This document shows, one piece after another, positions 44,614 to 61,627 of a DNA stretch of 64,000 nucleotides; position 1 is the stretch's first letter, and every line of letters starts with the position of its first letter. This DNA is from an uncultured virus (IMG/VR IMGVR_UViG_3300043543_000740) (taxonomy: Duplodnaviria; Heunggongvirae; Uroviricota; Caudoviricetes). The notes under the pieces are model-generated. The model was given only the letters and a program-made list of their open reading frames with translations, made no database searches and was not told the origin of the DNA. Location of the stretch: IMG/VR virus record IMGVR_UViG_3300043543_000740; one strand, written 5' to 3'. The translations under genes were made by a program, and so were the position numbers.

Positions 44614-46881
44614 TCAGCGTCGTTTCGCCTTCTGGAGTTCTGCGAAGCTCACCCGCTCGCGTTTGGGCGCGGGCTTCACGTCCGTGCCCGGCAGGGAGCA
44701 GCCCTGCATCGACGCGGCCACGGCGCAGCCGACGACGCCGTCGAGCCAGTGGTTGTCGCTCCGCTCGGGCCGCATCTTCCACTCGTCCACCGTGCGCCCG
44801 CGCCCCTCGGTCTTCACGCGGTACTCGGCGGTCAGGTGGTCCGCGAAGAGCCGGTGCGTCTCGGCCCGGTCGCCGAAGAGCGACAGGCACCCGCGGTCGC
44901 CCAGCACCACCGCCAGCCGCGCCTGCACGAACGACTTCCAGTAGTTGGTGTCGAACAGGACGTGCCGGACGGCCCGCTTCCCCTGCACGTTCGGGACGCG
45001 CCAGTGGTGGCCGACGCGGTCGCCCGGCCGCCGCTTGTACTCGCTGAACGGCTGGCTCGACGCGCCGACAAACCGTCCGTGGGCCGGCGTCACGACGGAG
45101 GCGTGGGCGGACTCGCGGCAGAACTGGTACACGACGTCCGTTGAGGTGCCCCAGTTGGCGTCGATCAGGCAGCGCTCGATTCGCAGGACCGCGCCGTCGT
45201 CGCGCGGCCAGTCGCGGCCGAGGAGCGCGGCCGTCAACTTCTCCAGCCCCTGGTAGATTGCCCCCTCGATCCCCGCCGCGCCGGTCGCGACGGCCAGCGT
45301 CGGGTTCGCCTCGCGGAGAGTGAAGTACGGCCGCCGCTGGTCGGGCCAGGTGCCGTAATCCAGGACGTAGCCGGTGAAATCGTCCTCCCAGCCGCACGCG
45401 ACCCAGAACAGCAGGCTCCCCTGCACGTCCACGAACGCGGTCAGCCGCCCGCAGCCGATCGGCACCTCGCCGCGGCCGCGCCGGTTGAACTTACCCGCGA
45501 TCTGGTCGGCGGTGAGCTCGTCGTCGCCGGCGACCTCCTCGAGGAGTGGCTCGTTCTGGTACTCGGCGAAGAAGGCGGCCTCGTCCTGGAGCCGCAGGTT
45601 CATCGCGTGCTGGATGGCCGACAGTTCGTCGTGGTTGAACCGGGCCGGCCAGGCGACGCGCGACCCGGCGTCCATCGCCTCCCGATGGGCGCGGTAGAAC
45701 TCGGTCGCCTCGACGCCCTCACGCCCCTCCCGCAGGCTCTCGGCGCGGATCTCGGCGTAGCGCTGCCAGAGCTTCTCGTCGGCCGGGAACGAGTAGACCA
45801 TCTTGGTCCGCTCGCCGTTCCACTCCGGGTGTTTGTCGCGCGAGAGGATGTTGTCCGCCATGTCGCCGGGGCGGATGACCGTACACGGCATGATCCCGGA
45901 GATCTTCCGCCCCGGCCCAGCCAGCCCCAGCACCGCGCCGGCGAGGATGCTCTCGCGGGTGGCGCACTGGGACAGCGACCGCGCCGACTCGTCGGTCTGC
46001 GGGTCGTCGAGCACGACGAGCGACGGCCGCACGGTCTTGCCGTCGGCCCGCTTGTACTTCATGCCACGGATGCGGCCGGTGATCCCCGCCACCTTGACGA
46101 TCGCGCCGCTGGCGGTGCTGCCGGGGATCGTCGGCAGCACGACTTCACGCGCCGTCCAGCCGATGTGGGTCCGCTCGCCCTTGTAGAGCTGGCCGTTGCA
46201 GCGGTTGGCGATCCCGTCGAGGCAGTGGATCGGGTAGACGACCTCCGGGAAGTCTTCGAGCAGCAGGTCGTTGCCGTCGAGCTCCATCTTGATGGCGTCG
46301 AGCATGTCCATCGCGTGCCCCTCGTCCGACCCGATCAGGCAGACGAACTCGCGGTGCCCGTAGAGCACCGCCCAGATGCACGCGCACTCCGAGATCGAAC
46401 TCTTCCCCGAGCCCCGCGGCATCGCCATCGCGAACAGGCCGCCGCGCAGGACTGCCTGCTCGATCCGGGCAATCACCTTCAGGTGGTCGTCGGACCACGG
46501 CAGCGAGAACGTCAGCGGGAAGTAGCTGTCGCAGAAGAACCGGAAGTCCGACGCGGCCCGCTCCTTCCGCTCGCGGTTCACCACGTCCGGTAGCTCACCA
46601 ATATCCCGCCCCGCCAGCGACAGCGCGAGGTTCCGCGCCCTCGACCGGGTCTTCAGCTCCTCGTAGGGGTCGCCGGCCGGTTCCGGTTTCGGGGCGTGGC
46701 GCTGCGAGACGAGCCACGCGACGTAGCGGACGAGGTCGACGTGCTTGCCGTCGCCGACCCGCATGCCGGCGCGGGAGCGGTGACGGTAGAGCTGCCGCTC
46801 GCTGATGACCTCGCCGAGCGGAGTCGAGTTCAGCAACCGGCAGAGCTCCGAGGGCTTCAGCCGCCGCGGGTCAGTCGCCAT
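44614..46881 (-). CDS. Terminase large subunit (GpA-like) with N-terminal HTH extension
   Basis: MPRGSGKS, VVLDDPQ, EYQNEP, VDVQ and NHWLD motifs. Confidence 0.92.
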   Translation of the reverse strand: MATDPRRLKPSELCRLLNSTPLGEVISERQLYRHRSRAGMRVGDGKHVDLVRYVAWLVSQRHAPKPEPAGDPYEELKTRSRARNLALSLAGRDIGELPDVVNRERKERAASDFRFFCDSYFPLTFSLPWSDDHLKVIARIEQAVLRGGLFAMAMPRGSGKSSISECACIWAVLYGHREFVCLIGSDEGHAMDMLDAIKMELDGNDLLLEDFPEVVYPIHCLDGIANRCNGQLYKGERTHIGWTAREVVLPTIPGSTASGAIVKVAGITGRIRGMKYKRADGKTVRPSLVVLDDPQTDESARSLSQCATRESILAGAVLGLAGPGRKISGIMPCTVIRPGDMADNILSRDKHPEWNGERTKMVYSFPADEKLWQRYAEIRAESLREGREGVEATEFYRAHREAMDAGSRVAWPARFNHDELSAIQHAMNLRLQDEAAFFAEYQNEPLLEEVAGDDELTADQIAGKFNRRGRGEVPIGCGRLTAFVDVQGSLLFWVACGWEDDFTGYVLDYGTWPDQRRPYFTLREANPTLAVATGAAGIEGAIYQGLEKLTAALLGRDWPRDDGAVLRIERCLIDANWGTSTDVVYQFCRESAHASVVTPAHGRFVGASSQPFSEYKRRPGDRVGHHWRVPNVQGKRAVRHVLFDTNYWKSFVQARLAVVLGDRGCLSLFGDRAETHRLFADHLTAEYRVKTEGRGRTVDEWKMRPERSDNHWLDGVVGCAVAASMQGCSLPGTDVKPAPKRERVSFAELQKAKRR

Positions 46882-47083
46882 GCGCGTCCTCCGCCACCAG
46901 CCACGCCGCGTAGTGAACCAGGTTGATCGTCCCGTCCGCATTGGTCGGCGCACCGGCGTCGATGTCCGCCCGGATCATCGCCTCCGTCACGCCGAACCCG
47001 CCCACCCGCGCGAGCATGCGCGCGGCGTCCGCGACGGGCATCGCGGCGGGGTTGAGCACGGGCTTCGCCTCGTCGGGCGGCAT
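46871..47083 (-). CDS. Small HTH protein, terminase small subunit-like
   Basis: Overlaps the terL start; paralog of 1-216. Confidence 0.65.
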   Translation of the reverse strand: MPPDEAKPVLNPAAMPVADAARMLARVGGFGVTEAMIRADIDAGAPTNADGTINLVHYAAWLVAEDAHGD

Positions 47084-47530: not shown

Positions 47531-47531
47531 A

Positions 47532-47600
47532 GCCGAAACGCCTTCCCCACGCGGGAAGGTGTCGCGGCGGGTGGTTCCCGCCGCCTGATGACGGCAGCCA
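47532..47600 (+). ncRNA. Type II hammerhead ribozyme HHR3 (predicted cleavage after 47563)
   Basis: Intact core; stem III is GCCTTCCC/GGGAAGGT. Confidence 0.9.
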
Positions 47601-47617
47601 AACAACGGGGGACGAGC

Positions 47618-47869
47618 ATGTCGGCACAAACGGAGCGCAAGGTGACGGACGCGGCCGCGGCGATGCTGGTCGGCCGGCGGGTGGTGCGGGTCGGGTACAT
47701 GCCGGCCGCGGAGGCGGCGGACCTGGGGTGGTCGCACCGGCCGGCCGTGCTGGAGTTCGACGACGGGACCGTCGCCTACGCCGCCTGCGACGAGGAGGGG
47801 AACGACGCGGGCGTGCTGTTCGTGGAGGCGGGGCGAGGCGACCTCTGCCTCGGGCGGTTCCCGACCTGA
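47618..47869 (+). CDS. Hypothetical protein
   Basis: 83 aa with DEEGNDAG; the stop abuts HHR4. Confidence 0.7.
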   Translation: MSAQTERKVTDAAAAMLVGRRVVRVGYMPAAEAADLGWSHRPAVLEFDDGTVAYAACDEEGNDAGVLFVEAGRGDLCLGRFPT

Positions 47870-47933
47870 GCCGAAACGCGGGACGTCCCGCGTCGCCCGG
47901 CCGTGGCGGGCCGGGCCTGATGACGGCAGCCAC
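47870..47933 (+). ncRNA. Type II hammerhead ribozyme HHR4 (predicted cleavage after 47894)
   Basis: Intact core; divergent but paired stem I GCCCGGCC/GGCCGGGC; loop GTGGC pairs with tail GCCAC. Confidence 0.9.
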
Positions 47934-47954
47934 CGAACCCCGAGGAGCGGAACG

Positions 47955-48182
47955 ATGAACCCGCCGAAGCCGGTGACGATCGAGTTGGAGGTGACCGAGT
48001 TCCCCACCGCCCGCGAGGCGATCGAGCACGCCCGCGCGCACGGCGGCCGGGCGATCCGGCTGGGCGGCCGGAGCCTGGTGGTCCGCGACCAGGACGCGGA
48101 GTGGTTGGCGACCGCCCGGGTGGAGTTCGCGTACCTGTGCGACCACCACGGGCAGATCGTGACGGTCCCGGTCAACGATTGA
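47955..48182 (+). CDS. Hypothetical protein
   Basis: GAGGAG RBS; the stop abuts HHR5. Confidence 0.7.
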
Positions 48183-48183
48183 A

Positions 48184-48243
48184 GCCGAAACGCCCCCGCG
48201 GGCGTCGCGGCGGGTGGCTCCCGCCGCCTGATGATGGCAGCCA
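48184..48243 (+). ncRNA. Type II hammerhead ribozyme HHR5 (predicted cleavage after 48206)
   Basis: Intact core; stem III GCCC/GGGC; loop TGGCT pairs with tail AGCCA. Confidence 0.9.
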
Positions 48244-48268
48244 ACCCCATCGACCCGGAGCGACGACC

Positions 48269-48697
48269 ATGACCGCGAAGAAGACCACGAAGAGTTCCCC
48301 CGCCCCGAAGAAGGCCACCGGGGGCAAGAAGCCGAAGGCCGCCAAGAACGCGACGCCCGCCGTCGAGGAGCCCGCGAAGACCCCGGAGGCGACCACCCCG
48401 CCGGCCGAGGCCGCGGATGCCAAGCCCGCCAAGACCAGGAAGGCCCGCGCCGAGAAGCCGAAGAAGATGAGCGCCCTCGACGCCGCCGCCAAGGTCCTCG
48501 GCGAGGCGGGCAGCGCGATGAACGCCAAGGAGATGATCGAGGCGATGGCGAGCAAGGGGTACTGGACGACCCCCGGCGGGAAGACCCCGCACGCGACCCT
48601 CTACGCCGCCATCCTGCGCGAGATCACCGCCAAGGGGAAGGAGGCCCGGTTCGCCAAGACGGAGCGTGGCAAGTTCGCCCTCAACGGGGAGGCCTGA
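48269..48697 (+). CDS. Lys-rich HARE-HTH-like protein
   Basis: Paralog of 2241-2765. Confidence 0.8.
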
Positions 48698-48722
48698 CCC
48701 CGGACGCCGCCCGTTCGCCCAC

Positions 48723-48746
48723 GAGGCCCCCACGCGGGGCCTCTTC
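48723..48746 (+). terminator. Terminator-like hairpin
   Basis: GAGGCCCC-N5-GGGGCCTC-TTC, homologous to 3166; weak U-tract. Confidence 0.55.
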
Positions 48747-48765
48747 CCGCTTGCCGTCGTTCCGT

Positions 48766-49137
48766 TCAACGTGCGCCCTCCGACGCGACGTGGGCCGACG
48801 TGGGCGAACGGGCGGCCTCCGGGGCGAGGAACCGGACCGGCTTGCCCAGCGCGCGGGCCATCGCGATCTCCTCCCGCACCCCGATGCTCTCCCGCCACCC
48901 GTCGAGCATCAGCACCGCGACCTCGTCGCACCGCTCCAGGTGGACCCGGTCGATGCGTTCCCAATACGACCATGCGGTCGGCAACTCGAACTCGATGAGC
49001 GAGTGGCTGTGGACGATCGGCGAGAACACGACCTCGCCGGCGCGGAGCAGCGCGGCGGTCGCCCGGCAGGCGGCGCGGAACCGCTCTTCGCGGACCGCGG
49101 GGTCGGGATGCGAGTATGGACTGGCGAGGTAGATCAC
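48766..49137 (-). CDS. DUF1937-like protein
   Basis: Paralog of 3206-3649. Confidence 0.8.
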   Translation of the reverse strand: MIYLASPYSHPDPAVREERFRAACRATAALLRAGEVVFSPIVHSHSLIEFELPTAWSYWERIDRVHLERCDEVAVLMLDGWRESIGVREEIAMARALGKPVRFLAPEAARSPTSAHVASEGAR

Positions 49138-49499
49138 GCGGACACCTCCGCGCCGGTCCGCTCGGCCTTGCGGCCGGTGAACTTCTCCCACCGCTGGACG
49201 ATGACGTCGCAGTACAGCGGGTCCAACTCCATCAGGTACGCCTTCCGTCCGGTCTGCTCGGCGGCGATGAGCGTGCTGCCGGAGCCGCCGAACAAGTCGA
49301 GAACATGCTCACCCTCGCGGGACGAGTACTGCATCGCCCGCACGGCCAACTCGACCGGCTTCTCGGTGAGATGCACCATCGACTGCGGGTTGACCTTCTT
49401 CACGCTCCACACGTCCGTGGCGTTGTTCGGCCCGAGGTAGACGTGCGCCGCGCCCTCGCGCCAGCCGTAGAAGCACCACTCGTGGTTGCCCATGAAGTC
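49134..49499 (-). pseudogene. 3' part of the interrupted ParB-DNA methyltransferase
   Basis: DFMGNHEW...DLFGGSGS matches the C-terminus of 4032-5342. Confidence 0.9.
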
Positions 49500-51245
49500 C
49501 CCTCCGGGTAGCCGTGTGGAGCCATCGGCGAACGCACGCTCCAGGCCCGCGTGTAGGTAGACTGTGCCCGTCTTGTCGTCGGGGTTGACCTCGATCTTCT
49601 CGACGAACGCGGCGAGCATCTGCCGGTCCGCGAGGTCGATGTCCGTCCGCGTCGCCAGGGCGTCGAGTTTGGCGAACTGCTCCATCGCCCAGGCCCGCAG
49701 ATCGGCCTCGGTGATGATCGGTGTGGCAGGTTCATCGGTGGGCTTCAAGCGGGCCTCCAGCACGTCGCGCTTGGCCTTCAGGTCGGCCAGGGTGGTCCGC
49801 AGTTCGTCCAGACCGTCGAACGTCGGGTCGGCCAGCATCGACACGGTCGCCTTGATCTTGCGGTTCAGCAGGTCGAGCTCGCGCTCGTCGCCCCGCGTCG
49901 GCTTGGCCTTCGCTCGCGGGGCCAGCACCGCTTTGACGAACGCATCGACCGCCTTCTCGACCGTGGCGTGGTCGCCCAGCAGCACCTTCCGCACAGCATC
50001 CAGCACGAACCGGTCGAGGGCCGGGCCGGGGACGTTCACCACCCGGCAGACCGTCTTGCCGTAGCGGTGGTAGCCCGAGCAGGCGTAGACGCGATAGCCC
50101 TCGCCGGTCGGGCCGGGCCAGCGGCGGTCGCGGATCGTGGTGAACGGGTTGCCACACCGCTTGCACACCAGCAGGCCAGCCAGCAGGGTGCGTTTGGTCG
50201 GCCGGGCGTTGCCGTGCTCGGCCCGCCGCTTGGCCACGGCCCGCTGGGCGGCCGCCCAGGTATCCTTGCTGACCAACGCCTCGTGAACGTCCTCGCTGAT
50301 GATCCAGTCGGCCTCGGTGTTGCGCTGCCACATCTTCTTCCGCTTCGGCTTCAGCACGCCCTGGCCGTCGAGGCCGAACAGGCTGCCCATCGTGTGGCGG
50401 TTCCAGACGACCGCCCCGCGATAGACCGGGTTGCGGATCAGCTTGGCGATGCGGGCCGTGTTCCACTTCTGCCCGCCGGGCGACGGGATGCCCTCGGCGT
50501 TGAACGTCTGCGCGATGTGGTGGAAGCCGTAGCCCTGCACGCACAGGTCGAACATCCGCTTCACCACCGCTACCCGCTCGGGCAGGCTCGGGACGTAGCG
50601 GATGATGTCGCTCTTGGCCTTCTTCAGGTTGACGCCCACCGGGACCACTCGCAGCAGTCGGCCATCCGGCCCGAACTCCTGCTTACTACCGTCGGGCATC
50701 CACCGCAGCGTGCGGAGCAGTTGCCCGTCGCCGGTCAAGTGCTGCTTGTCGTAGCCGTACGGGGCCATGCCGCCGGGCGCGGACTTGCGTTCGCGGATGT
50801 TCGAGATCTGGCCCCGGATGCTGTCGCGGGCGAGCTTGACCGAGTACTGGCGGGCCTGCCAGGATTTGACGCCCTGGATCAGTTCGCCCTCGTCGCCCTC
50901 GGGGATGCCGTCGGCAGTGAAGACCACGCCGACGCCGGCCAGGTGCAGGCGGTGCAGGTAGAAGCCGGTCTCGTTGGTGCCGCCCCGCGAGAAGCGGGAG
51001 ATGTCGTAGCACAGCACCGCCTCGAAGTCGCGGCCGTTCTCGGCGGCCTTCATCATCTGCTCGAAGGCGTCGCGGCCGCGGGCACTGGTGCCGGACACCG
51101 CGTCGTCGATGTACCAGCGCAGCACGCGGTAGCCGTGCTCGGCCGCCCAGCGTTCGACGGCGGCCTGCTGGTCGGGGATCGAGCGTTCCTGCATGTCGGT
51201 GCTGCGGCGCGCGTAGCCGACGGCCGGGATCAAGGTCTTGGTCAT
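49134..51245 (-). CDS. Large serine integrase of the satellite, reading in-frame into the MTase C-terminus
   Basis: YARRS, DISRFSR and CKRC Zn ribbon; junction STRLPGG-DFMGNHEW. Confidence 0.9.
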   Translation of the reverse strand: MTKTLIPAVGYARRSTDMQERSIPDQQAAVERWAAEHGYRVLRWYIDDAVSGTSARGRDAFEQMMKAAENGRDFEAVLCYDISRFSRGGTNETGFYLHRLHLAGVGVVFTADGIPEGDEGELIQGVKSWQARQYSVKLARDSIRGQISNIRERKSAPGGMAPYGYDKQHLTGDGQLLRTLRWMPDGSKQEFGPDGRLLRVVPVGVNLKKAKSDIIRYVPSLPERVAVVKRMFDLCVQGYGFHHIAQTFNAEGIPSPGGQKWNTARIAKLIRNPVYRGAVVWNRHTMGSLFGLDGQGVLKPKRKKMWQRNTEADWIISEDVHEALVSKDTWAAAQRAVAKRRAEHGNARPTKRTLLAGLLVCKRCGNPFTTIRDRRWPGPTGEGYRVYACSGYHRYGKTVCRVVNVPGPALDRFVLDAVRKVLLGDHATVEKAVDAFVKAVLAPRAKAKPTRGDERELDLLNRKIKATVSMLADPTFDGLDELRTTLADLKAKRDVLEARLKPTDEPATPIITEADLRAWAMEQFAKLDALATRTDIDLADRQMLAAFVEKIEVNPDDKTGTVYLHAGLERAFADGSTRLPGGDFMGNHEWCFYGWREGAAHVYLGPNNATDVWSVKKVNPQSMVHLTEKPVELAVRAMQYSSREGEHVLDLFGGSGSTLIAAEQTGRKAYLMELDPLYCDVIVQRWEKFTGRKAERTGAEVSA
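49498..49520. other. att junction (integrase-proximal)
   Basis: TC-N6-GGGTAGCCGTGTGGA, inverted relative to 60093-60115. Confidence 0.85.
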
Positions 51246-51311
51246 GGGTTCGTCTCCGGGTTGCGCACCGACGCCCCGCATGGGCGGGGCGTGGCGGCGG
51301 GTTGTTTGGAA

Positions 51312-51611
51312 TCAGGCCAGCGTGAACCGGCCGCGGGCGACCTTGTGGAACTTGGCATCCTTGCCCTTGGCCCGGATCTGTCGCAGTAGGGAGGCGTACA
51401 GGGTCGCGGCCGGGGTCTTGCCCGCCGGGCTGCTCCAGAGCCCCTTGGCCATCATCGCCTCGACCATCTCACCGCAGGTCATCGGCTCGCCGGCGTCGGC
51501 CAGGACGCGCTCGGCGGCGGCGATCTGGCTCAGCTTCTCGGCCGGGGCCGGTTGCGGTTCAGGCTTCTTCTTCGGGGCTGCCTTCTTCTTCGTGGTCGTC
51601 TTCGTCGCCAT
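51312..51611 (-). CDS. HARE-HTH-like protein
   Basis: GKTPAATLYASLLRQI; third paralog. Confidence 0.8.
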   Translation of the reverse strand: MATKTTTKKKAAPKKKPEPQPAPAEKLSQIAAAERVLADAGEPMTCGEMVEAMMAKGLWSSPAGKTPAATLYASLLRQIRAKGKDAKFHKVARGRFTLA

Positions 51612-51942
51612 CGTGGTTCTCCCGCATCGGGTCGTCGTGGTCGCGGGGCGACGATCCCTCCGCGTCAGGACAGTCAGTTACAAGCCGGTTCGCCCCGGTT
51701 CCAGCGACTTCCGGCCCGATTCCGGGAGATTCTTCCGGGGCCAGCAGGTGCTTCCGACCCGCCCGGATGTCGGCCTCGAGTTGTTTGAAGAACCGCCACT
51801 CCCACAACGGCACCAGCACCACGTCCGCCTTGCCGTAGCGGGTGATGACGACCGGCTCGTCGGTGCGGGCGACGTGCAGGCAGACCATGCCCAGCCCGTC
51901 GCGCAGCAGCGACACCGCCATCTTGTGCTCGGTCGGCTTCAT
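51559..51942 (-). CDS. Phd/YefM-like antitoxin or regulator
   Basis: EPVVITRYGK..VVLVP; the C-terminal tail is doubtful. Confidence 0.6.
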   Translation of the reverse strand: MKPTEHKMAVSLLRDGLGMVCLHVARTDEPVVITRYGKADVVLVPLWEWRFFKQLEADIRAGRKHLLAPEESPGIGPEVAGTGANRLVTDCPDAEGSSPRDHDDPMRENHDGDEDDHEEEGSPEEEA

Positions 51943-52027
51943 GGTTCCTTTCCGGGTTTGGCTCCCCGCGATGAGGTCGGGCGGAACAGGCACGGGGAAC
52001 AAGACACACATCTTGTGACCAACAAAA

Positions 52028-52120
52028 TCCGGACCTGTACAAGAAGGAAACTGTGCTTACCCCGGTCGGTGTTCCGCGTGCCAATTTTTCTTTTCGATCC
52101 GGCCGGGAAGGAACCATTGG
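52028..52120. other. Satellite copy of the cos-like conserved site
   Basis: TCCGGAC..AAACTGTGC..TGTTCC..GGCCGGGAAGGAACCATTGG. Confidence 0.45.
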
Positions 52121-52178
52121 CCAGTTGTTGCGTGTGCAACACCTGATCCATTTGAATCACCCGGTCCGGCGGGTTGTC

Positions 52179-52368
52179 TTCCACACGGCTACCCCGCGAC
52201 CTCTCATCGTGCCGCGCGTGCTTGTGCGCGCTTCCTATACCCGCCCCCCGGGGTGCGTTCACGCACCCACGGGGGGTATAAGGGGGGTGCGCGCACACAC
52301 ACACAGACACCCGAGGCGGGTCAGCAAGACGCCGGGAGGAAGTTTCCACACGGCTACCCCGCGACCTC
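52179..52368. repeat. Two 25-bp direct repeats containing the att arm, flanking a long imperfect palindrome (candidate ori)
   Basis: TTCCACACGGCTACCCCGCGACCTC at 52179 and 52344. Confidence 0.75.
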
Positions 52369-52381
52369 ATGAACGCGGTCA

Positions 52382-53971
52382 TCACTCATCCTCCGGCTGG
52401 GGTCGCGTGGCGAACTGGACCGGCTGGTTGGCTCCGAACTTCCAGCGGTGGACGAGCCCGGCGGCCTCGGCCTGCTTGAGCAGCTTCTTGGCCAGCGGTT
52501 CGGGCACATCCGCCTCCGTGGCCCGGTGGACGATGCGCGCCGTCATGGCGGGCGTCTTGGTCACGAACGCCGCCACGAACGAAGGGACGGTCCACTCCGG
52601 CTTCGACGGCTTGGCCGGCTCGGGCTGCGGGGTCGGCTTCGGCTTGCGGCGGAGCTTCTCGGACTTGAGGTCGGACGGGTCGAGCGCGTCCTCGACGGTC
52701 CAGACCGGGAACGACCAGCGCAGACACCTGGGTTCGATCGGCGGCCACGAGCGGACGGCGGCGTCGAGGACGGCCACTCCGGGCTCCTCGTGCGGACGCA
52801 GGACGAGGTGCGTGTCCGCCGCACGCGACTGCGCCCCGGCCCCCGCGCCGACATCCGTGACCGCCTTGCCCGACTGGTTCCCCTTGGTGCTGTGGTGGAT
52901 CAGCACGAACGCGCACTGCAACTTCGCGGCATAGGCGTCCAGCACGTTGTACACCTGGGCCATCGTGCCGTTGTCGTTCTCGTCCGTGTCCCTCGGCATC
53001 GCCCGGTAGAAGGCGTCGATCACGACTAGCTTGTACCTGCCCGGCTCGATCCGGCTGAAGCACGGCCCCAGGCCGAAGATGTCTTTCAGCTTGCCACGCA
53101 GGTTCACGATGTCGATGCGGTCGCCGCACTCGGCGAGCGTGATGCCGCGGGCCTCCATGACCTTCGGGATGCGGCCGGCCGACGTTTCCTTGTGCAACTC
53201 GTTGTCGATGAGCAGCACCCGGCCCTGTTCGCACGGGAACAGATCGAGCCACGGGCGGCCGGTCGCCACGGCCAGGGCGAGGTCGCTCACCAGCCAGGAC
53301 TTGCCGACCTTGGGCGAAGCGATGACGTTCAGCGTCTCGCCTTCGCGGAGCAGCCCATGCACGACCGGCGGTCGCAGGTGCGGATACCGCATGACGAGTT
53401 CGCGGAGCGACTGGATGGGAAACTCGTCCGGCTCCGACTTGGCGGGTGTCGGCACCGGCTTGGTCCCGGTGCGAAGCCACTCCAAGTTGCCGGGCTTCTT
53501 GGTGAGCGGTGCCGGCTCGGGTTCCGGCGGTTCGTCCCAATCGTCGTCGGGACGGGGTGGTTCGGTGGGTTGGTCGAAGTCGATCGGCTCGGCCGCCCAG
53601 CGTTCGACTCGAGTGAGCCAGCGTTCCAGTTCCACGCCGAAGTCGCGCTCCTCGGCATCGGGGTTGAACCACGCCTGCTCGACGAACGCCAGCGCGTGAT
53701 GCCGACCGCGCAGTTGAGCCGCCAGAACCTCGTGGCCCGGCGTGTACCACTCCGCGCCGTCACGCTCGACCCGCGCGTTCTCCCGGGCGATCTGCCGCTG
53801 CTCCTCGACGAACTGGATCACCTCGATGTCCGGCCGGAGCCACTGCGACGCCTCGCGGGCACCGAGGAGAAATCCCTCCCGATAGGCATGCTCGGCCTGC
53901 TCCCGATGCGGATGGCCCTCGGGCAGCACGGAATCGCCGTAGTAGGGCACCATTTCAGTTGCGTTCGACAC
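52382..53971 (-). CDS. AAA_25 / RepA-like helicase
   Basis: ASPKVGKS, LIDNE, VVIDAFY and LIHHSTKG motifs. Confidence 0.85.
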   Translation of the reverse strand: MSNATEMVPYYGDSVLPEGHPHREQAEHAYREGFLLGAREASQWLRPDIEVIQFVEEQRQIARENARVERDGAEWYTPGHEVLAAQLRGRHHALAFVEQAWFNPDAEERDFGVELERWLTRVERWAAEPIDFDQPTEPPRPDDDWDEPPEPEPAPLTKKPGNLEWLRTGTKPVPTPAKSEPDEFPIQSLRELVMRYPHLRPPVVHGLLREGETLNVIASPKVGKSWLVSDLALAVATGRPWLDLFPCEQGRVLLIDNELHKETSAGRIPKVMEARGITLAECGDRIDIVNLRGKLKDIFGLGPCFSRIEPGRYKLVVIDAFYRAMPRDTDENDNGTMAQVYNVLDAYAAKLQCAFVLIHHSTKGNQSGKAVTDVGAGAGAQSRAADTHLVLRPHEEPGVAVLDAAVRSWPPIEPRCLRWSFPVWTVEDALDPSDLKSEKLRRKPKPTPQPEPAKPSKPEWTVPSFVAAFVTKTPAMTARIVHRATEADVPEPLAKKLLKQAEAAGLVHRWKFGANQPVQFATRPQPEDE

Positions 53972-54125
53972 GTTGCACCTCCTCCCGGCCGCGGAGCCAC
54001 TGGGCCAGGAGCCATGCCGCCAACGCCTCGGCGCGCCGCTCGACGCGGGCCTGGGCCTCGGGCGCGGGGTCGCTGAACGCCACGGTGAACGTGAACGAGC
54101 CGATCTGCGGGTTGGTGTCGGACAT
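53955..54125 (-). CDS. Small hypothetical protein (56 aa)
   Basis: GAGAGG RBS, MSDTNPQIG; overlaps the helicase start. Confidence 0.5.
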   Translation of the reverse strand: MSDTNPQIGSFTFTVAFSDPAPEAQARVERRAEALAAWLLAQWLRGREEVQRVERN

Positions 54126-54259
54126 GGCCCCTCTCCTGTGCCGGTCCTGCCGAGGCAGGGATGAACCCCACGGCGGGGTTCGGCGACGGCTTGCCGGGTC
54201 GGCAAGTCGCGTTCGCCAGAGGCGAAGAGGGTCGGTCGATAGGTTGTGTCAGTGGGCTG

Positions 54260-56102
54260 TCAGTTCTCCCCTTTGGCCTTGTACGCGGCCCGGTGGTCGG
54301 CCAGCGCGGCCCCGTAGTCGAAGTAGACCCGCCAGGACACGGCCAGCTTATTCGGCTCCGCATCCATGCCGAAGAACTCGACGTTCGGCGACTGAACACC
54401 TTGCAGGAAGGCGACGATCAGCGGGGTGTCGGCCGGCCCGGCGAACAGGTACCACGCCTTCGCCGAGGTGCCGCTGAACCGCCCCGCGTTCGACAGTCGC
54501 GGCTCCACTTCCAGCGTCACGGCGTTCTTGAGGGCGTTGCCGGTGGGCACGTCGTTGTTGGCCCGCTGCAGAAAGTCGCTCATGAGCAACTCCTTGGCGG
54601 TCTGCTGCAACTCCGGCGGCACCAGCAGCACGCGCGGCCGGATGTCCAGATCGCGGCCCTCGCCGTCGCGCTGGCTCATCATCTTGGCGATGCCCGCCCC
54701 CAGCGACGCGCTGGACAACGCCGTGGCCGTCCCGGTGTCGTAGTTGGCGTGGCCGCCGCTGAAGAAGTTCCCGGCGTTGGCCAGCAGCACCTGGTACACG
54801 AGGTCGCTCAAGGACCGCATCGCCGCCCGGCCGAGGTTCCGGGCCGTCTCGTCGAACAACGATAAATCGTCGTTCACAACATCCCTGCGGTCGATGCTGA
54901 GCATCTTGGCGAAGGTGTCGATGCGGAACGGGTAGGTCATCTCCTTGATGGAGCCGTGCTTGATCTCGCCGCCGGGGGCCAGCTGGGTGAGGTCCCCCAC
55001 GTCACTACCCCGCACCCCGGTGTGCGGCTTGAAGTCCGTCGCCGACTTGATGCCCGCGAACGACCGCCACGTCGCCGGCGTCTCGGTGTAGGCGTCCATC
55101 AGCAGCTTGTTGGCCGCGTCACCCAACGCCACCGGCAGTGAGTAGGTGGACAGCGCGGCGCGGATCAGGGCGTCCCGGCTGCTGGGAATGTCCCGGCCGT
55201 CGAGTTGCAACGCCGCCCGGCACAGGTCGATCAGGTTCGTGGCCCGGAGGTCGCGGGCCTGCTGGGCTGCCGTGGCCCCGAGGTGCCGTTCGGCGAGGTG
55301 TTCGTAGCCCATGTGGCTCAGCACCGCCGCCTCCAGCGTCTGTCGGGTCGTGGTGAACGTCCGGCTGTGGATCGTCGTCACCTGCGGCCGGCTGGCACGC
55401 AGGACTTCGAGCCGCGTGCGGCGGACATCCCAGCCTTCCACGATGGCGCGGGCCTCGATGTCGCCGAACTGCCCGCCGCACGCGGTGCGGATGGCGTGGA
55501 CCCGCTCCGTCTCGGCCAGGGCCGCCGCTCGGATGTCATCGGCCGTCTGCGTCTCGTTCATGGTGCTCTCCTTCCCTTGGGCCGCGATGGCGACCGACGT
55601 GTTCGCATCGGCCCCGATGGCGACGATGCTCACCTCCCGCAGCACGCCGGCCTTGACCAGCGTGAACCCACTCCGTCCGGCGGTGATCGCCCGGCCGTTC
55701 ACCTGCACGGATTCGCCGCCACGAACCCGCTCGTAATCGGTAGGCATCACGCCGACCGATGCTTGGAACTTGAACCCGCCCCGAGCGAGTTCAACCACCT
55801 GCCGGGCCGCCTCGGTCACGCCGGTAAGCGTGCCGTGGACGAGCAGCTTGCCGTCGATCACCTGCGCGCGGCCGTGCCCGACGATGCCGTCGAGTGTGGC
55901 GTCGTGGTCCGCCAAGAGGCTGATCTGCTCGGCTCCGGCATCAAGCCCCGCGAGGTCGATGGCAACCGGCCCCCAGCCCGGCACCGTCATCAGCCCGCCC
56001 GTGTACGCCACGATGGAAACGCTCGGCGGTTTGCCGGACGCGGCTTGAATCTCGACCTCGGCGGATGACAGCAGGATTTCTTGAGACGCAGTGGAACGCA
56101 TG
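54260..56102 (-). CDS. Satellite protease-major capsid fusion
   Basis: Homologous to 40835-42790 (AYTGG, QASVG, GGEIKHG, NDDL). Confidence 0.88.
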
Positions 56103-56392
56103 AGGTGACCGACCTCCCCGGAACGACGGAACGGAAGCAACCGGTCGGGCACGGTGCCCGCCGGTCGAGGGGTGGTTGGATGGGTGGGTCGTTGGGTTGG
56201 GTCGGTCGGTCGATGGGTTCGTTCGGGTCGTCAGGGTGGGAAGGTTTGCTCCCGGTCCTTGGCCGTCATGGCGCGACCGTTCCCCGACTGGAAGAATTGT
56301 AGCGGATGTACACCTTGACGACAAGCCCGGGAGATGATTTTCTTTCGTATAACAATGTTCTCATCGAGAAAGGCATCCCGAGAGTACTTGCC

Positions 56393-59300
56393 ATGCGTCG
56401 TTCCCTATCGTCCTGGGCCAAGAGCATCTTCCCGACCGCCCCGACTCGGCCGATCCGTAAGCCTCGTTCCTTGACCCTGGAACAGTTGGAAACGCGCGAC
56501 TGCCCGACCGTCCTGCCGCCGGGCGGCCCCGAACCGCAGCCGCCCGGCCCCGGCTTCCCGCCGGTAGCCAACCCGGACCACTTCGCCTTCGCTCCCGACG
56601 CGCCGATCCGCATCAGCGTCGCCGACCTGCTGGCCAACGACACGGCCGCGCCCGGCGTGCCGCTGACGGTCGAACTGCTCGATAGCCCCGCCGGCGGGCA
56701 ACTCGACCTGATCGACGTGGGCCTGTGGGAGTACACGCCCGGCACCGGTTTCAGCGGCAGCGACGCTTTCAGCTACCGCCTCTTCGACGGCACCGATTAC
56801 AGCCTGCCCGCCCTCGTGACCTTCGAGCAGCAGCCCACCCCGCCAAGCACACCAGCCACACCCACCGTCACCGACGTGACCGAGGCGTGGCTGACCGGCT
56901 TCGAGGATGAGGCCCTCGGCAGTGTCACCGTCGCGGTGTTCGAGACGGCCGAGGCGGACGTGCTCGACTGGACCGCCAGCATCGACTGGGGCGACGGCAC
57001 CACAACCACCGGGCAGATCGTGGCCGACGGCGACGGCCGGTTTCGCGTCGTGGGCGAACACACCTACGACGCGTGGGGCCTGTACCTCGTGCAGGTCACG
57101 CTGACCGACACGGTCGAGGAGACGCACGACCTCTACAACCTGGCGAGCATCCAGTTCCGCAACTACACTTACACGTTTACCGACCCGATCGGCAACAGCA
57201 CGCAGTTCGTCTTCGCCGAGGGCTGGCAACTCACGCAGGAGATCGACCCGCTCGGGAATTCGACCTTCTACAGCTACACCACCGACGGCCTGCTCGCCAG
57301 CCGCACCGACCGGCTGGGCCGGGCCATCACCTTCGACTACGGCACCGACGGCGTGCTCCTGAGCCAGACGTGGCTGGCCGCCGACCTGACCACCGTGGTG
57401 GACACGCTGTCGTTCAGCTACACCAGCGACGGCCTTTTGCTCAGTGCGAGCAACGGCGTCGGGGCGTACACATTCAGTTGGGCCGACGGGGTGCTGACCG
57501 GCGTGACCAACCCGTTCGGGGTGACGCTGACGTTCGGCTACGACACCGACGGCCGACGGACCTCGGTGGCCGACTCGTTCGGCGGGCTGATCACCTCGAC
57601 CTACACCGACGGCCTGCTCAGCAGCCGGACGCTCGTGGCCGGGGCGTTGAACCTGCGGGTCGATCTGGGCTACGACGCCGACGGGGTGCCGACCCAGATC
57701 AGCCGGTTCGCCGGGCCGCTGCAGGAGTTGGTGTCGCAGACGGAGTACGCCTTCGCGCAGGGCTTGCTCGCCTCGATCACGCATCGCGGCGCGGGCGGGG
57801 TGATCCTCGACCAGTTCCTCTACCAGTTCGACGAGGACGGCTTCCTCTCGCAGATCACCTCCGACTTCGTGGGCGAGACCGACTACGCCTACGACGCCGA
57901 CGGGCAGTTGACCGGCGAATCGTCAATCTTGGTGTCCAGCACGTTCAGCTACGACGCCAACGGGAACCGGGTGGGCGGCGGGTACGTCGTCGGGCCGGGC
58001 AACCGCCTGCTGGCCGACGGCACGTGGAGCTACAGCTACGACGCCGAGGGGAACCTCGTCGGCAAGACGCACCTCGTGACCGGCGATAGTTGGACCTACA
58101 GCTACGACCACCGCAACCAGATGACCCTGGCCGAGAAGCGTGACGCGAGCGGGTCGGTGGTGCTCTACGCAGTCTACAAGTACGACGTGTTCGGCAACCG
58201 CATCGAGAAGGCGGTGGACTGGGACGGTGATGGACCAAACACGCCAGTCATGACGCGGTACGTGCTTGACGGCTGGAACAACATGAAGCCGACGCCGGTC
58301 GGCAACGAGCACTTCGACGTGTACGCCGAGTTGGACGGCACGAATCAGTTGATCGCCCGGTATCTGCACGGCGACGAGTTCGACCAGACGTTCGCGCGGG
58401 TGTTGGTGGACGGCAGCACGCCCGAGGTCCACTGGCTGTTGGCCGACCACCTGAACTCGGTGCGTTTGGTGCTGGACGAGAGCGGCGCGGTACTCGACCA
58501 GATCGCCTATGATGCCTTCGGCAATATCGTGGCGCAGCTGAACCCGCTGCTCGTTAACCCGATCCTGTTCGCCTCGCGCGAGTTCGACGCCGAGACGGGC
58601 CTCTACTACAACCGCGCCCGCTACCTCGACCCCACCACCGGCTGCTGGACCACGCAAGACCCGCTCGGCTTCGCCGCCGGCGACGCCAACCTCTATCGCT
58701 ACCTGAACAACAGCCCGACCCTTGCCACCGACCCGAGTGGCTTGATCTGGTATCCGGGGAAGTATCTGTACCAGATGTACAGCGAATACCGACGGGGTCA
58801 GGAACTGGATCGCCAGATTAACCAGCATCGTGCCACGCAAAACTTACCGCCACTCCCGCCGCCGCCTCACTGGGCACGAGTGGCTGTCACGGAGTTTGGT
58901 GATGGTCTGCGGATCGGGTTTCAAGCCAACGTGAATGCGGTAGCGACGGCCGGACGTTCGTTGGTCACCTTGGGTATCTGGGCCGAGCCGTGGGAAGTGT
59001 GGGCAGTGGATGACGTCGATCGGCCGTTCTACGAGGATGGGTTTTTGGCTGCACGCTTCGGCTGGGAGTTGCTGCCGACGGCGGGGATTGGCAAGCTGAC
59101 GCAAGTGCCGGGTCAGATGGGTCGCTGGGGCCGGTACGCTCTGTACTGGGACGCTGGCCAGAATGTTGTCCAGGTCGGTCGGGGTGGTTATGATATCTAC
59201 GAAAACGGCCTGACCTGGACGAATGGCCTGCAAGTCGGCGGCCTGCTCGGACTGGGCGGCAACTACACCACTTGGCGGAGGCTGCCGAGTGTAGCTCCAG

Positions 59301-59602
59301 CAGGTAAGGGGGGAAGAGGGGACATCATGCGGATGGCCCCGTCTGATGCCCCTCGGTCTGCCGCCGAGGCCGCCTTGCGACGGGAAGCAGAATTGCGACA
59401 GCGAATCCTGGCAGATCGTCTTGCTGAGTTAGGTCACGGTGAGGGTGGTGCTGTCGGAAAGGGAGCGACCCGCCTTCCTCCTGAAGCAGCGAATGATCCC
59501 ACGGCCCGAGGTATGTGGGAAGAGTTGCAAAGGATTCGTCGCCAGATTGCTGACCTTCGCCGTAACCCGCCTTCTGGCCCCCGTGAAATGCTGGAACCTT
59601 GA
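56393..59602 (+). CDS. Rhs/YD-repeat polymorphic toxin with planctomycete export motif
   Basis: LEQLETRDCP, Ig-like domains, YD repeats, GLYYNRARY..DPLG..NLYRY..DPSGL. Confidence 0.92.
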   Translation: MRRSLSSWAKSIFPTAPTRPIRKPRSLTLEQLETRDCPTVLPPGGPEPQPPGPGFPPVANPDHFAFAPDAPIRISVADLLANDTAAPGVPLTVELLDSPAGGQLDLIDVGLWEYTPGTGFSGSDAFSYRLFDGTDYSLPALVTFEQQPTPPSTPATPTVTDVTEAWLTGFEDEALGSVTVAVFETAEADVLDWTASIDWGDGTTTTGQIVADGDGRFRVVGEHTYDAWGLYLVQVTLTDTVEETHDLYNLASIQFRNYTYTFTDPIGNSTQFVFAEGWQLTQEIDPLGNSTFYSYTTDGLLASRTDRLGRAITFDYGTDGVLLSQTWLAADLTTVVDTLSFSYTSDGLLLSASNGVGAYTFSWADGVLTGVTNPFGVTLTFGYDTDGRRTSVADSFGGLITSTYTDGLLSSRTLVAGALNLRVDLGYDADGVPTQISRFAGPLQELVSQTEYAFAQGLLASITHRGAGGVILDQFLYQFDEDGFLSQITSDFVGETDYAYDADGQLTGESSILVSSTFSYDANGNRVGGGYVVGPGNRLLADGTWSYSYDAEGNLVGKTHLVTGDSWTYSYDHRNQMTLAEKRDASGSVVLYAVYKYDVFGNRIEKAVDWDGDGPNTPVMTRYVLDGWNNMKPTPVGNEHFDVYAELDGTNQLIARYLHGDEFDQTFARVLVDGSTPEVHWLLADHLNSVRLVLDESGAVLDQIAYDAFGNIVAQLNPLLVNPILFASREFDAETGLYYNRARYLDPTTGCWTTQDPLGFAAGDANLYRYLNNSPTLATDPSGLIWYPGKYLYQMYSEYRRGQELDRQINQHRATQNLPPLPPPPHWARVAVTEFGDGLRIGFQANVNAVATAGRSLVTLGIWAEPWEVWAVDDVDRPFYEDGFLAARFGWELLPTAGIGKLTQVPGQMGRWGRYALYWDAGQNVVQVGRGGYDIYENGLTWTNGLQVGGLLGLGGNYTTWRRLPSVAPAGKGGRGDIMRMAPSDAPRSAAEAALRREAELRQRILADRLAELGHGEGGAVGKGATRLPPEAANDPTARGMWEELQRIRRQIADLRRNPPSGPREMLEP

Positions 59603-59610
59603 GGAAGATC

Positions 59611-59943
59611 ATGATGGAAAGAAAGAACGGTCGAATCGTCGGCGGCTCTTTCGATGAGCTTGTGGCGATGCTATCTTCGTCCAATCACTTCGACCGGGCT
59701 GAGGCGGCCAGGCTGCTCGTCAACATGCGGAAGGAGGCCATCAAGGCATTACCCGCACTTCTGGCTCTGCACAATGACCCCTGTGATCTGGTTCGCATTC
59801 AAGTACCCCGTGCGATTATTCACATGGAAGCTCGCCCTGATGAGGCTGCTGAGGTTCTACGCTGCCTTTTGAATGACAAGAACAAGATCGTCAGGCTGTA
59901 TGCTGAAGAAGCGCAGCAGTTTCTCACCCAGCGAACGTCATAG
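59611..59943 (+). CDS. HEAT-repeat protein, putative immunity protein
   Basis: Directly after Rhs; LHNDPCDLVR / LLNDKNKIVR; lower GC. Confidence 0.65.
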   Translation: MMERKNGRIVGGSFDELVAMLSSSNHFDRAEAARLLVNMRKEAIKALPALLALHNDPCDLVRIQVPRAIIHMEARPDEAAEVLRCLLNDKNKIVRLYAEEAQQFLTQRTS

Positions 59944-60092
59944 CTCTTTGTGTGCTGCTCGTCCCGAAGTACGCCGCCGCCTTTTCACCCCCCGGAGTCC
60001 CAATCAAGAACACAGGCCGGGGTAGCTACCAGCCTAGCCTGAAAAATGTTCACATCCACACGTTTCCCCGTTCCCACTCGAACCCGACCCGT

Positions 60093-60115
60093 TCCACACG
60101 GCTACCCCGTGAATC
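60093..60115. other. att junction (distal)
   Basis: TCCACACGGCTACCC-N6-TC. Confidence 0.85.
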
Positions 60116-61060
60116 CTTGCGGGTGAGCACCGGGTGCTCCTTCACCCAGATGATCGCCTGCGAAAAGTACAACTCGCAGGCCTTCAGCACCGGCGGGTAG
60201 TTGGCGCAGTTGGCGTAGCCGCCCCAGATGTAGAAGCCGCGGCCGGGCTCCAGCACGCGGGCGAGGTTCCCGAACCACGCGGCCAAGAGCCGGTCGAACT
60301 CGGCGTCGGAGACGAAGTCGTTGGCGAGCGGCCGGTCCTTGGCGCGGAGCTTCTTCCCCGTCGGTTTGGCCTTCTCGGGGTGGCGCTCGACGTCGAGCTT
60401 CTGGTGGTGGGTGGTGCCGGCGAACGAGGAGAGGCCGGCGGCGATGGCGTTGTTGGAACGCGGCTCGACCTTCACGTTGTACGGCGGGTCGGTGTTCACC
60501 AGGTGGATGCCCGCGCCGCCGAGCAACCGGTCCACGTCCGCCGGCTTGCTGCTGTCGCCGCACAGGAGGCGGTGGTCGCCCAGCACCCACAGGTCGCCCG
60601 GTTTGGTCGTCGCCTCGTCCGGCGGTTCGGGCACCTCGTCCGGGTCGGTCAACCCGTCCTTCAGGGTCGGGTCGAGCAGCTTCGCCAGCTCGTCCGCGTC
60701 GAAGCCGAGGAGCGCGAGGTCGTAGTTGGCCTCCTTCAGCCCGGCCAGTTCGATCGGGAGCAGGTCGTAGTCCCACGTCGCCAGCGACGCCGTCTGGTTG
60801 TCGGCGATCCGGTAGGCGCGGATCTGCTCGGGGGTCAGGTCCGTGGCGACGTGGACCGGCACCTTCTCCAGGCCCAGCTTCAGTGCCGCCTTGTAGCGCG
60901 TGTGGCCGACGACGATGACGCCCTCGGCATCGACGACGATCGGCTGGCGGAACCCGAACTCGCGGAGCGACGCCGCGACCGCATCGACCGCGTCGGCGTT
61001 ATCCCGCGGGTTGCCGGGGTACGGCTTCACGTCGGTGATCTTCCAGAGTTCGATCTTCAC
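60114..61060 (-). pseudogene. 5' part of the interrupted ParB-DNA methyltransferase
   Basis: Matches 4032-5342 up to HPVLTRKD, then diverges. Confidence 0.9.
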
Positions 61061-61280
61061 AGGTCGTCCCTCCAGGTTTCGCCGTGGTACAGCTCGATGG
61101 CGGTCAGCTCGTGGGCAGGTCGCCTCTCGACTCCGAACGGCTCGGTCGGCACGGGGCGGGCGCGGCGCGTCCCGGCCTCGCTGAGCTAGGCCGGGCGGCC
61201 GACGCATCGAAGGCAATAGGGGCCGTGCGGCGTGTCCCGACCGCACCCCTCACATCAGCGCATGGAGCACCTCTCCGAAG

Positions 61281-61365
61281 TCCGGACAGCGAAAACAAAC
61301 TGTGTCCTGTAGCGCGGCTGTTCCCCCTGGCGTCGCGGGCGAAACATGCGGCCGGGAGTACCTAT
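61281..61365. other. Candidate cos/packaging site of prophage B
   Basis: Same blocks and spacing as 5364-5448. Confidence 0.45.
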
Positions 61366-61487
61366 TGGACCGATCGACCTTCGGGGCGTAGCGGCATCGG
61401 CCACGCCGATGTTCGGATCTCACCACGAACCAGAAACGATGGATCGGCACCTCCAACACGATGAAGAACAAGAAGAGAATCCGAGGG

Positions 61488-61627
61488 GGAGGTAGTTCGT
61501 AGTTTTTGGTAGCCACCCTTTCTCTCCTCCAGCGCCGATCGCGCACACACGAGGTGGGTGCGAAAAACGACGAACTACCTCCTTCACGCGGAGACAAGGC
61601 GGGTACGAAAAACTACGAACTACCTCC
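61488..61627. repeat. Iteron-like repeats (candidate ori)
   Basis: AAAAAC(T/G)ACGAACTACCTCC at 61563 and 61608; inverted copy at 61488. Confidence 0.7.

Follow-up and report, generated by a model that had tools for sequence, protein, structure and literature searches.

In this study, we analysed a 64,000-nt stretch of DNA from an uncultured caudoviricete virus (IMG/VR record IMGVR_UViG_3300043543_000740), hereafter called the window, in which an element at positions 49498 to 60115 interrupts a phage DNA methyltransferase gene. This element is very likely a helper-embedded phage satellite, lodged in a temperate phage of a planctomycete (Gemmataceae-like) host and inserted by its own serine integrase. 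A phage satellite would fit both the gene content of the element and its size, which is about one fifth of that of the helper. Because it carries capsid and replication genes of its own, we regard it as a mobile satellite and not as a dedicated switch, and because its relatives split a large terminase gene, a capsid gene, and others, the methyltransferase appears as one of several targets. The element is best described as a serine-integrase helper-embedded satellite and as a member of a widespread, apparently undescribed family.

The inserted element (49498..60115, minus strand) measures 10,616 bp when the crossover dinucleotide GA is counted once. At attL (60093..60115, minus strand), the methyltransferase frame, ...ACC CGC AAG GA on the minus strand, breaks at 60115 and is followed by TTCACG-GGGTAGCCGTGTGGA, in which TTCACG is a 6-nt spacer and GGGTAGCCGTGTGGA the P' arm (60107-60093); the GA crossover occupies 60115-60114. 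At attR (49498..49520, minus strand), the minus strand from 49520 to 49497 reads TCCACACGGCTACCC-GGAGGG-GA-C TTC ATG GGC, with the P arm TCCACACGGCTACCC at 49520-49506, the spacer GGAGGG, and the GA crossover at 49499-49498. The two 15-mers are exact reverse complements of each other, and GA lies 6 nt from each. The predicted circular junction (attP) is a 44-nt sequence composed of a 15-nt arm, 6 nt, GA, 6 nt, and a 15-nt arm, with perfect arms; the chance of a fixed perfect 15-nt match is about 4^-15. The same layout occurs in four related loci (L006, L010, L020, and L033). Three nucleotides, GGA, are common to attL and attR, and a crossover at GG or at GA would both fit the sequence alone; GA was taken as the crossover centre because the arms are symmetric about it.

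A natural empty site is found in the nearest record, a 49.5-kb virus record (G001), which is 99.87% identical to positions 22488-49512 of the window and 99.95% identical to positions 60106-64000, and which does not contain the 10.6 kb in between. Its junction is exactly the predicted attB, ...CGCAAGGACTTCATGGGC..., and falls within an open frame of 499 codons; between the two gene halves of the window and the intact gene of G001, none of the 1497 nt differs. The region was also compared with four public metagenome runs, all as assembled Logan contigs, which are fragmentary here, so that uncovered parts carry no meaning, and which give no reading of depth, strand, or rare junctions. In one of the four runs (X3), the 10,616 nt are missing from a contig in which 49497 is followed directly by 60114, with an ambiguity of 3 nt. 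Taken alone this contig is weak, because its short side is 22 nt. Comparison of these records shows the insert to be discrete and its ends to be exact. The original prediction had described exact attachment sites with GA-centred, perfect 15-nt inverted arms at both ends, and this description has held, now with a natural empty site to match.

The insertion point is the GA in codon 378 of a ParB-methyltransferase gene of the helper. The 5' part of this gene (ParB_N / N6_N4; 60050..61246, minus strand) comprises 377 codons, matches Pfam ParB_N and positions 1-91 of the 221 positions of N6_N4_Mtase, and closes on a tail encoded by the element, SRGSRVERVGFEWERGNVWM, the native C-terminus of the integrase. 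The 3' part (49134..49497, minus strand; 121 codons) contains the FGGSGS motif and is in frame with the integrase; positions 139-220 of N6_N4_Mtase match residues 620-695 of the resulting 715-aa open reading frame (ORF). Joined in silico at GA, the flanks give a 498-aa frame with no internal stop. The rejoined protein is 83% identical over 438 aa to an intact paralog encoded at 4032-5444 (minus strand), the junction is ungapped, and the stretch ...EHPVLTRK/DFMGNHEW..., in which the slash marks the junction, is identical in both. The earlier claim that excision would rebuild the methyltransferase gene agrees with this open, colinear frame and with the identical natural sequence in G001. The window contains two related prophages in tandem, A (1-22487) and B (22488-64000); the paralog belongs to prophage A, and prophage B is the helper, in which the interrupted gene comes after the primase gene.

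The large serine integrase gene, int (49500..51281, minus strand), encodes 594 aa within the element. Its product contains the Pfam domains Resolvase (3.5e-24, residues 20-157), Recombinase (5.7e-27), and Zn_ribbon_recom (4e-13), and matches the phrog_95 integrases (3e-96); the domains of this adjoining ORF support the serine-integrase type that the original prediction had assigned to the ends. Residues R25, R26, S27, D29, and Q31, together with C373, C376, and C412, are invariant across 30 aligned integrases. All ORFs of the element are open, and neither a frameshift nor the loss of a catalytic residue was seen in int. The integrase is predicted to recombine attP with attB.

As int has no stop inside the element, its integrated form runs through attR into the C-terminal part of the methyltransferase (715 aa), and its excised form would take its last 21 codons from the opposite end of the element, which gives a predicted protein of 615 aa ending in DSRGSRVERVGFEWERGNVWM. 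The insertion therefore splits two genes, the helper methyltransferase and int, whose last 21 codons sit at the far end, and it leaves two chimeric ORFs, one joining the methyltransferase N-terminal part to the integrase tail (398 aa) and the other joining the integrase to the methyltransferase C-terminal part (715 aa). GA-to-GA recombination would restore both genes. Since int spans attP, the integrase and the target protein trade C-termini upon integration. The closed-form C-terminus, ...SRVERVGFxWERG, is kept in five independent elements, namely that of the window and the four relatives for which attL is available, where the tails read DSRGSRVERVGFIWERGK... (L010), DGRGSRVERVGFAWERGKIS (L020), DRMGSRVERVGFLWERGK... 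(L006), and DRTDSRVERVGFAWKWGK... (L033). Its conservation in these four other elements identifies the tail as real coding sequence.

All core genes of the element are encoded on the minus strand and have the same orientation as the target. Immediately upstream of int is a gene for a 99-aa HARE-HTH protein (51312..51611, minus strand; Pfam 1.3e-14), which is 54% and 41% identical to the longer HARE-HTH proteins of prophages B and A, respectively, both encoded beside the methyltransferase genes of those prophages. The HARE-HTH domain has been proposed to be a reader of modified DNA. A small conserved ORF (51559..52011, minus strand), 87% identical in L010, has a weak Phd/YefM-like match (Pfam 2e-05, 24.7 bits, under the cut-off of 29.8). 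Further upstream lie a gene for a primase/helicase-like AAA_25 ATPase (52382..54205, minus strand; Pfam AAA_25 1.6e-29; phrog_2597 DNA primase 6.6e-40), which is presumed to be the replication initiator of the satellite, and a gene for a fusion of head-maturation protease and major capsid protein (54260..56152, minus strand; Pfam Phage_capsid_4 2e-41; phrog_4523 'major head and protease protein' 1.6e-78). The latter protein is 35% identical to the helper capsid protein over 626 aa. Pfam and PHROGs gave no terminase, portal, or tail gene among all ORFs of the element, and Pfam gave no AlpA or Bro domain in it. A guess from repeats, according to which three long minus-strand ORFs were paralogous recombinases, was ruled out by their Pfam domains. 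A complex prediction for integrase residues 160-594 with the HARE-HTH protein scored 0.00, which is informative neither way.

Searches with the integrase yielded 84 related loci, four on viral contigs and 80 in genomes, nearly all of them metagenome-assembled genomes (MAGs) of Planctomycetota; the closest relative is a Gemmataceae MAG with a 92% identical integrase. Among loci with sufficient sequence upstream of int, a capsid gene is present there in 36 of 44, AAA_25 in 45 of 60, and HARE-HTH in 56 of 71, and a terminase match within 9 kb upstream of int occurs in none of the 84. The satellite capsid genes of 41 loci are 31-36% identical to the capsid gene of helper B, and on account of this low identity we consider them a lineage of their own.

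The integrase end adjoins the C-terminal part of a methyltransferase in 13 loci and that of a large terminase in seven, co-oriented and in frame in all 20. The two halves of the split gene can both be seen in five methyltransferase loci (L006, L010, L020, L026, and L087) and two terminase loci (L033 and L081). D316, the first Asp codon of ...LVVLDDPQT..., is the point of insertion in most terminase loci (junctions in L007, L008, L030, L033, and L076), and in L081 the insertion is at about codon 363. Pfam identified eight of 30 read-through tails, leaving 22 without a family, and thereby added an SU10-type capsid gene (L042), DUF899 (L037), and an intein-holding methyltransferase (L087) to the targets; PHROGs gave no match for 25 tails, these 22 included. 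The in-frame junctions may have a neutral cause that does not require selection, because attP is itself coding and the ORFs of the genome mostly have 80-95% G+C at third codon positions, which would make a look-alike attB likelier in the same frame. In all 28 loci whose integrase aligns to its last residue, GA follows the aligned end, the 57 other rows falling outside this comparison. A quick IQ-TREE analysis of 73 integrases recovered a clade of terminase targeters (5 rows, support 98) and another of 19 rows (support 99), to which all integrases targeting methyltransferase codon 354 belong, and integrase subclades thus appear to correspond to target sites. In a large integrase subclade from Phycisphaerae (L052, L053, L057, L061, L089, and others), a 37-aa read-through tail, PRDTCSALQSAFVRRDTSASS..., is conserved, and its target was not identified. 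In L087 (11744-12910), the methyltransferase C-terminal part that follows the integrase has an Intein_splicing domain just ahead of the final methylase motif; together with the satellite insertion, this intein indicates that the same conserved gene stretch hosts two kinds of mobile element.

Downstream of the AAA_25 gene is a non-coding region, probably a control region (52179..52368, minus strand), with 25-nt exact direct repeats at 52344-52368 and 52179-52203 that each contain the P'-arm 15-mer and flank a hairpin of about 60 nt. The original prediction spoke of one pair of arm copies; both end copies are exact, but the 15-mer is present four times in the window, not twice. The extra copies (52180-52194 and 52345-52359) lie just past the AAA_25 stop codon, about 2.7-2.9 kb from attP. 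With at most one mismatch, the 12-mer TAGCCGTGTGGA has 31 matches in 856 kb of family loci versus about 3.8 expected by chance, and nearly all of them are at the P' arm (attL), at the inverted P arm (attR), or at internal positions located 2.5-3.1 kb upstream of attR. These internal sites, always in P' orientation, are paired in the window, L010 (8385-8610), L020 (7890-8095), and L076 (5575-5795), and single in L023 and L031; L006 has none. In terminase-type elements, GGATAG... is found at the P' arm of L033 as well as at the internal sites of L076. The hairpin of about 60 nt between the paired sites is near-invariant in five elements whose integrases are 62-92% identical, and its DNA fold has a z-score of -4.0. 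A search of the whole element against Rfam with E up to 1 gave nothing. From this layout, the hairpin region may be the origin or a control region of the satellite, flanked by integrase half-sites. To our knowledge, accessory half-sites at a distance are not known for large serine integrases. A (TG)n tract accompanies the hairpin and the half-site pairs, downstream of the replication gene. The idea that the hairpin mimics a packaging signal was dropped, as no copy was found in the helper DNA available.

Evidence for excised forms comes from relatives of the element. A degenerate attP pattern of the family was found in no viral contig and in three metagenome contigs (L090, L091, and L092). In L091, on a contig of 14,951 bp, a closed 595-aa integrase (82% identity) comes after AAA_25, the small ORF, and HARE-HTH; beyond it lie attP and an Eco57I-like methylase gene as cargo. 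L090 carries a closed integrase (75% identity) and attP, and then sequence colinear with the attL-proximal end of the window, with an RHS segment that is 87% identical. L015 also has a closed integrase, which brings the attP-type junctions seen to three loci (L015, L090, and L091), and because of these closed integrases and junctions, circular or concatemeric forms of the relatives are likely. For the copy in the window itself, we infer excision.

If the element is a satellite of this kind, induction of the helper would cause the integrase, together with a directionality factor, to excise it. The AAA_25 protein would replicate it from the hairpin region, and heads would be built from its own protease-capsid protein, with portal, terminase, and tail borrowed from the helper. 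The helper methyltransferase would be off until the satellite leaves, and in relatives the terminase would be off instead. The return of the gene would thus be timed by the satellite, and not by the phage or the cell.

A more far-reaching proposal is that the element represents an undescribed satellite lineage of Planctomycetota that uses serine integrases to lodge in helper genes and in which the C-terminus swap, the half-sites, and HARE-HTH are all functional. We find this combination doubtful as a whole. Under it, the in-frame chimera of integrase and methyltransferase or terminase would help to set directionality or would sense the state of the helper, the extra half-sites at the hairpin would couple recombination to satellite replication or to int expression, and the helper-derived HARE-HTH protein of the satellite would tie excision to helper induction.

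Several observations weigh against the interpretation of the element as a mobile, helper-dependent satellite. The exact attP of the element gave no match in viral contigs and none in metagenome contigs. No joint of the 'goes back' type was present at the element ends among the 15 joints listed of 41, and the empty sites in G001 and X3 may stem from phages that were never occupied. Among the relatives with attP, L090 switches abruptly to a terminase gene and may for that reason be rearranged or chimeric, and L092 is a mere 3' remnant of int adjoining attP. We infer helper dependence from gene content alone. In the element, no small terminase or packaging signal was identified, and no directionality factor was either, HARE-HTH and the small Phd-like ORF being candidates for the latter. 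At the nucleotide level, satellite and helper resemble each other in the capsid and HARE-HTH genes alone. A search for the hairpin core that allowed up to three mismatches gave no further copy in the window, and the G001 pieces contain no exact one. Lastly, L061 adjoins a portal/scaffold remnant and chromosomal genes, with no obvious intact prophage.

The original prediction had taken the element for a reversible switch of helper DNA methylation. In its strong form, this explanation holds that the element is chiefly such a switch, kept because toggling benefits the phage or the cell, as with skin/sigK or SPbeta/spsM. Excision does restore the gene exactly, the gene halves are undecayed, with 0/1497 differences from the intact gene, and HARE-HTH genes of both helper and satellite lie beside or near methyltransferase genes. 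However, relatives with the same module split a terminase gene (seven loci), an SU10-type capsid gene, or DUF899, and this variety of phage-gene targets across the family argues against excision timed to serve the host. Capsid genes, replication genes, and variable cargo fit a selfish mobile element better than a switch, and an intact, 83%-identical paralog is present in the same window. Owing to this paralog, methylation need not be lost in this cell, and any methylation effect may be masked by the intact copy in the related prophage A. Moreover, the authors who described helper-embedded phage-inducible chromosomal islands (HE-PICIs) hold that such regulation serves the satellite (PMC10111431). 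Switching of methylation thus stands as one consequence of the insertion, and a dedicated switch is unlikely.

A second alternative is that the element is a passively carried integrative island of cargo or defence genes, which is packaged within the composite and forms no particles of its own. The element does have cargo. On the plus strand near attL, opposite to the core genes, it carries a gene for a 1098-aa RHS-repeat protein (56306..59602; Pfam RHS_repeat 7.5e-23) with an N-terminal Big_9/cadherin-like part (Big_9 1.2e-12), followed directly by a gene for a 114-aa HEAT_2 repeat protein (59599..59943, plus strand; Pfam HEAT_2 2.3e-07). The pair is laid out like a polymorphic toxin with its immunity protein, but a toxin domain was not found. 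At the same place, L006, L020, and L090 have remnants or relatives of the RHS gene. Across the family, the cargo between attL and the capsid gene varies and includes restriction-modification systems, a SUKH immunity protein, a transglutaminase-like protein, and often an ECF-type sigma factor. The restriction-modification cargo (L016:921-3172, L081:910-3483, L091:1088-2359, and L061:762-2489) consists of a SacI-type endonuclease with a methylase, or of Eco57I-like methylases, and because of it the satellites may double as defence carriers. Such conflict-type genes in the cargo region would suit a passive island, as would the failure to find a small terminase or packaging signal and the fact that, apart from the capsid and HARE-HTH genes, no part of the element resembles the helper at the nucleotide level. 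In contrast, the complete protease-capsid fusion is kept in 36 of the 44 relatives with enough upstream sequence and is just 31-36% identical to the helper capsid, which suggests that the satellite capsid is under selection of its own. The dedicated replication protein, the near-invariant non-coding hairpin, and the attP-type junctions in relatives also speak against passive carriage, and we regard it as very unlikely.

Even less can be said for a decaying, immobile remnant of a nested prophage. Most virion genes are indeed missing from the element, but dozens of loci over several planctomycete families share its compact gene set, every ORF is open, the att arms are perfect, and relatives occupy several target sites with integrase clades to match, all of which makes decay extremely improbable. 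As for an assembly chimera of unrelated contigs, the window is apparently metagenomic and the Logan contigs across it are fragmentary, but the junctions lie at symmetric att arms exactly where gene homology stops and seven independent records show this architecture, including both gene halves, so that the probability of this explanation is negligible. Therefore, we retain the interpretation of the element as a helper-embedded satellite.

Prophage A offers a second possible site for such a satellite. Its intact methyltransferase gene (4032-5444) contains an unoccupied homologous site (4344..4423, minus strand) that is identical to the reconstructed attB at 73 of 80 nt and differs at seven, with GA at 4385-4384, which is where the original prediction had placed it. 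Every core difference of this site is also found in sites occupied by relatives, which makes it a plausible target: L010, with a 92% identical integrase and identical arms, and L006 use ...CCTCACGCGCAAG followed by GA, and L026 uses ...AAA followed by GA. The right halves of used sites are free to vary beyond +10.

Prophage B, the helper, encodes a gpA-type large terminase, a lambda-type portal, a protease-capsid protein, a cement protein, a head-tail joining protein, and a tail tube protein. Its large terminase gene is intact (44614..46953, minus strand; Pfam GpA_nuclease 6.8e-22), and the D316 codon of its ...LVVLDDPQT... motif lies at about 46008-46006. The HARE-HTH gene of prophage B (48101..48697, plus strand; 198 aa, Pfam 6e-10) is located about 440 nt from the end of the methyltransferase gene and has 75% nucleotide identity to the satellite copy. 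A 592-aa minus-strand ORF located between the terminase and methyltransferase genes (47195-48973) was considered as a gene and rejected; it has no family in Pfam or PHROGs, overlaps a plus-strand cluster of DUF7678 and HARE-HTH genes (47153-48998), and is probably spurious. Positions 26572-32558 (minus strand) contain four glycosyltransferase genes with GT1, GT2, GT4, and FkbM-type methyltransferase domains, and this block appears to be phage-carried because the surrounding region is 99.9% identical to G001. In prophage A, positions 4059-18672 have 76-85% nucleotide identity to the part of G001 that matches the replication and integration module of prophage B. Prophage A also encodes a large serine recombinase of its own (16006-17601), accompanied by a DUF2924 partner (17595-18296), and an rve-type insertion sequence (IS) element (18965-20236) lies between the two prophages.

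If this interpretation is correct, lodging in helper genes, so far described for the tyrosine-integrase islands of enteric bacteria, would have arisen again in the phages of a distant and little-known phylum, and this convergence would involve a different class of recombinase and a different set of satellite genes. The family also offers a natural series of related large serine integrases with attB sites mapped in conserved motifs (methyltransferase codon 378, terminase D316, and others), which would be useful for studies of how specificity changes and could be a source of orthogonal integrases. The split int, the in-frame chimeras, and the internal half-sites provide concrete hypotheses on the control of directionality. 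In addition, prophage genes that look broken in planctomycete genomes may just be occupied by satellites.

Our literature search, which covered sources outside the subscription journals, returned no account of a serine-integrase attP inside int or of distant half-site copies, and none of serine-integrase helper-embedded satellites in Planctomycetota. Judged by their titles and the openings of their abstracts, none of the papers that use the term 'helper-embedded' concerns serine integrases or Planctomycetota.

Large serine integrases swap strands at a central dinucleotide, and recombination between attL and attR needs a directionality factor. The integrase of the window shares with those of phiC31, Bxb1, and A118 the order of resolvase, recombinase, and zinc-ribbon domains, and its attP, like theirs, is short, with inverted half-sites around a non-palindromic dinucleotide and little else in common with attB. 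Unlike in these systems, attP lies inside int and extra half-sites are found about 2.7-2.9 kb away. In Bacillus subtilis, skin (SpoIVCA / sigK) and SPbeta (SprA-SprB / spsM) interrupt host genes and excise under developmental control, skin being immobile. Both resemble the element in that a large serine recombinase element sits in a coding gene that precise excision rebuilds; however, the element of the window targets a phage gene and belongs to a mobile, diversifying family. An att site within int is otherwise described, in a review (PMC8371274), as a trait of the archaeal 'suicidal' SSV-type tyrosine integrases and as exclusive to archaea. As in those integrases, integration partitions int, but the integrase of the window is of the serine type and exchanges just its last 21 codons, leaving the catalytic domains intact.

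Among satellites, capsid-forming PICIs (cf-PICIs) have a complete module for heads and packaging (capsid, portal, protease, connectors, and small terminase), whereas the element of the window has the protease-capsid gene alone. PLEs and some marine satellites use serine recombinases. We know of no cf-PICI, P4, PLE, PICMI, or VEIME that has been described as helper-embedded. The element is like the cf-PICIs (PMC9618062), P4, PLE, PICMI, and the VEIMEs in being small, integrative, and helper-dependent, with its own replication gene and some head genes, although its helper dependence is inferred.

The closest parallel is provided by the HE-PICIs (Tommasini, Mageeney and Williams 2023, PMC10111431), which that paper describes as satellites of about 11 kb with their own capsid gene, located inside lambda-like late genes including the terminase gene, co-oriented with the target, without replacement sequence, and involving tyrosine integrases alone. 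The element of the window is likewise a probable satellite of about 11 kb within a helper prophage gene, co-oriented with it and equipped with its own capsid and replication genes. Its attP also carries no replacement sequence, so that the target is broken until excision, a 'regulated gene integrity' that serves the satellite, and in both groups related integrases hit several prophage genes, the large terminase gene included, with subclades that follow the sites. In contrast, the HE-PICIs combine a tyrosine integrase and AlpA with the four-zone layout of Gram-negative PICIs, reside in enterics, and target late genes. The element of the window combines a large serine integrase and a 2-nt crossover with a protease-capsid fusion, AAA_25, and HARE-HTH in planctomycete hosts; it is inserted in a methyltransferase gene that belongs to the replication module, and its int spans attP.

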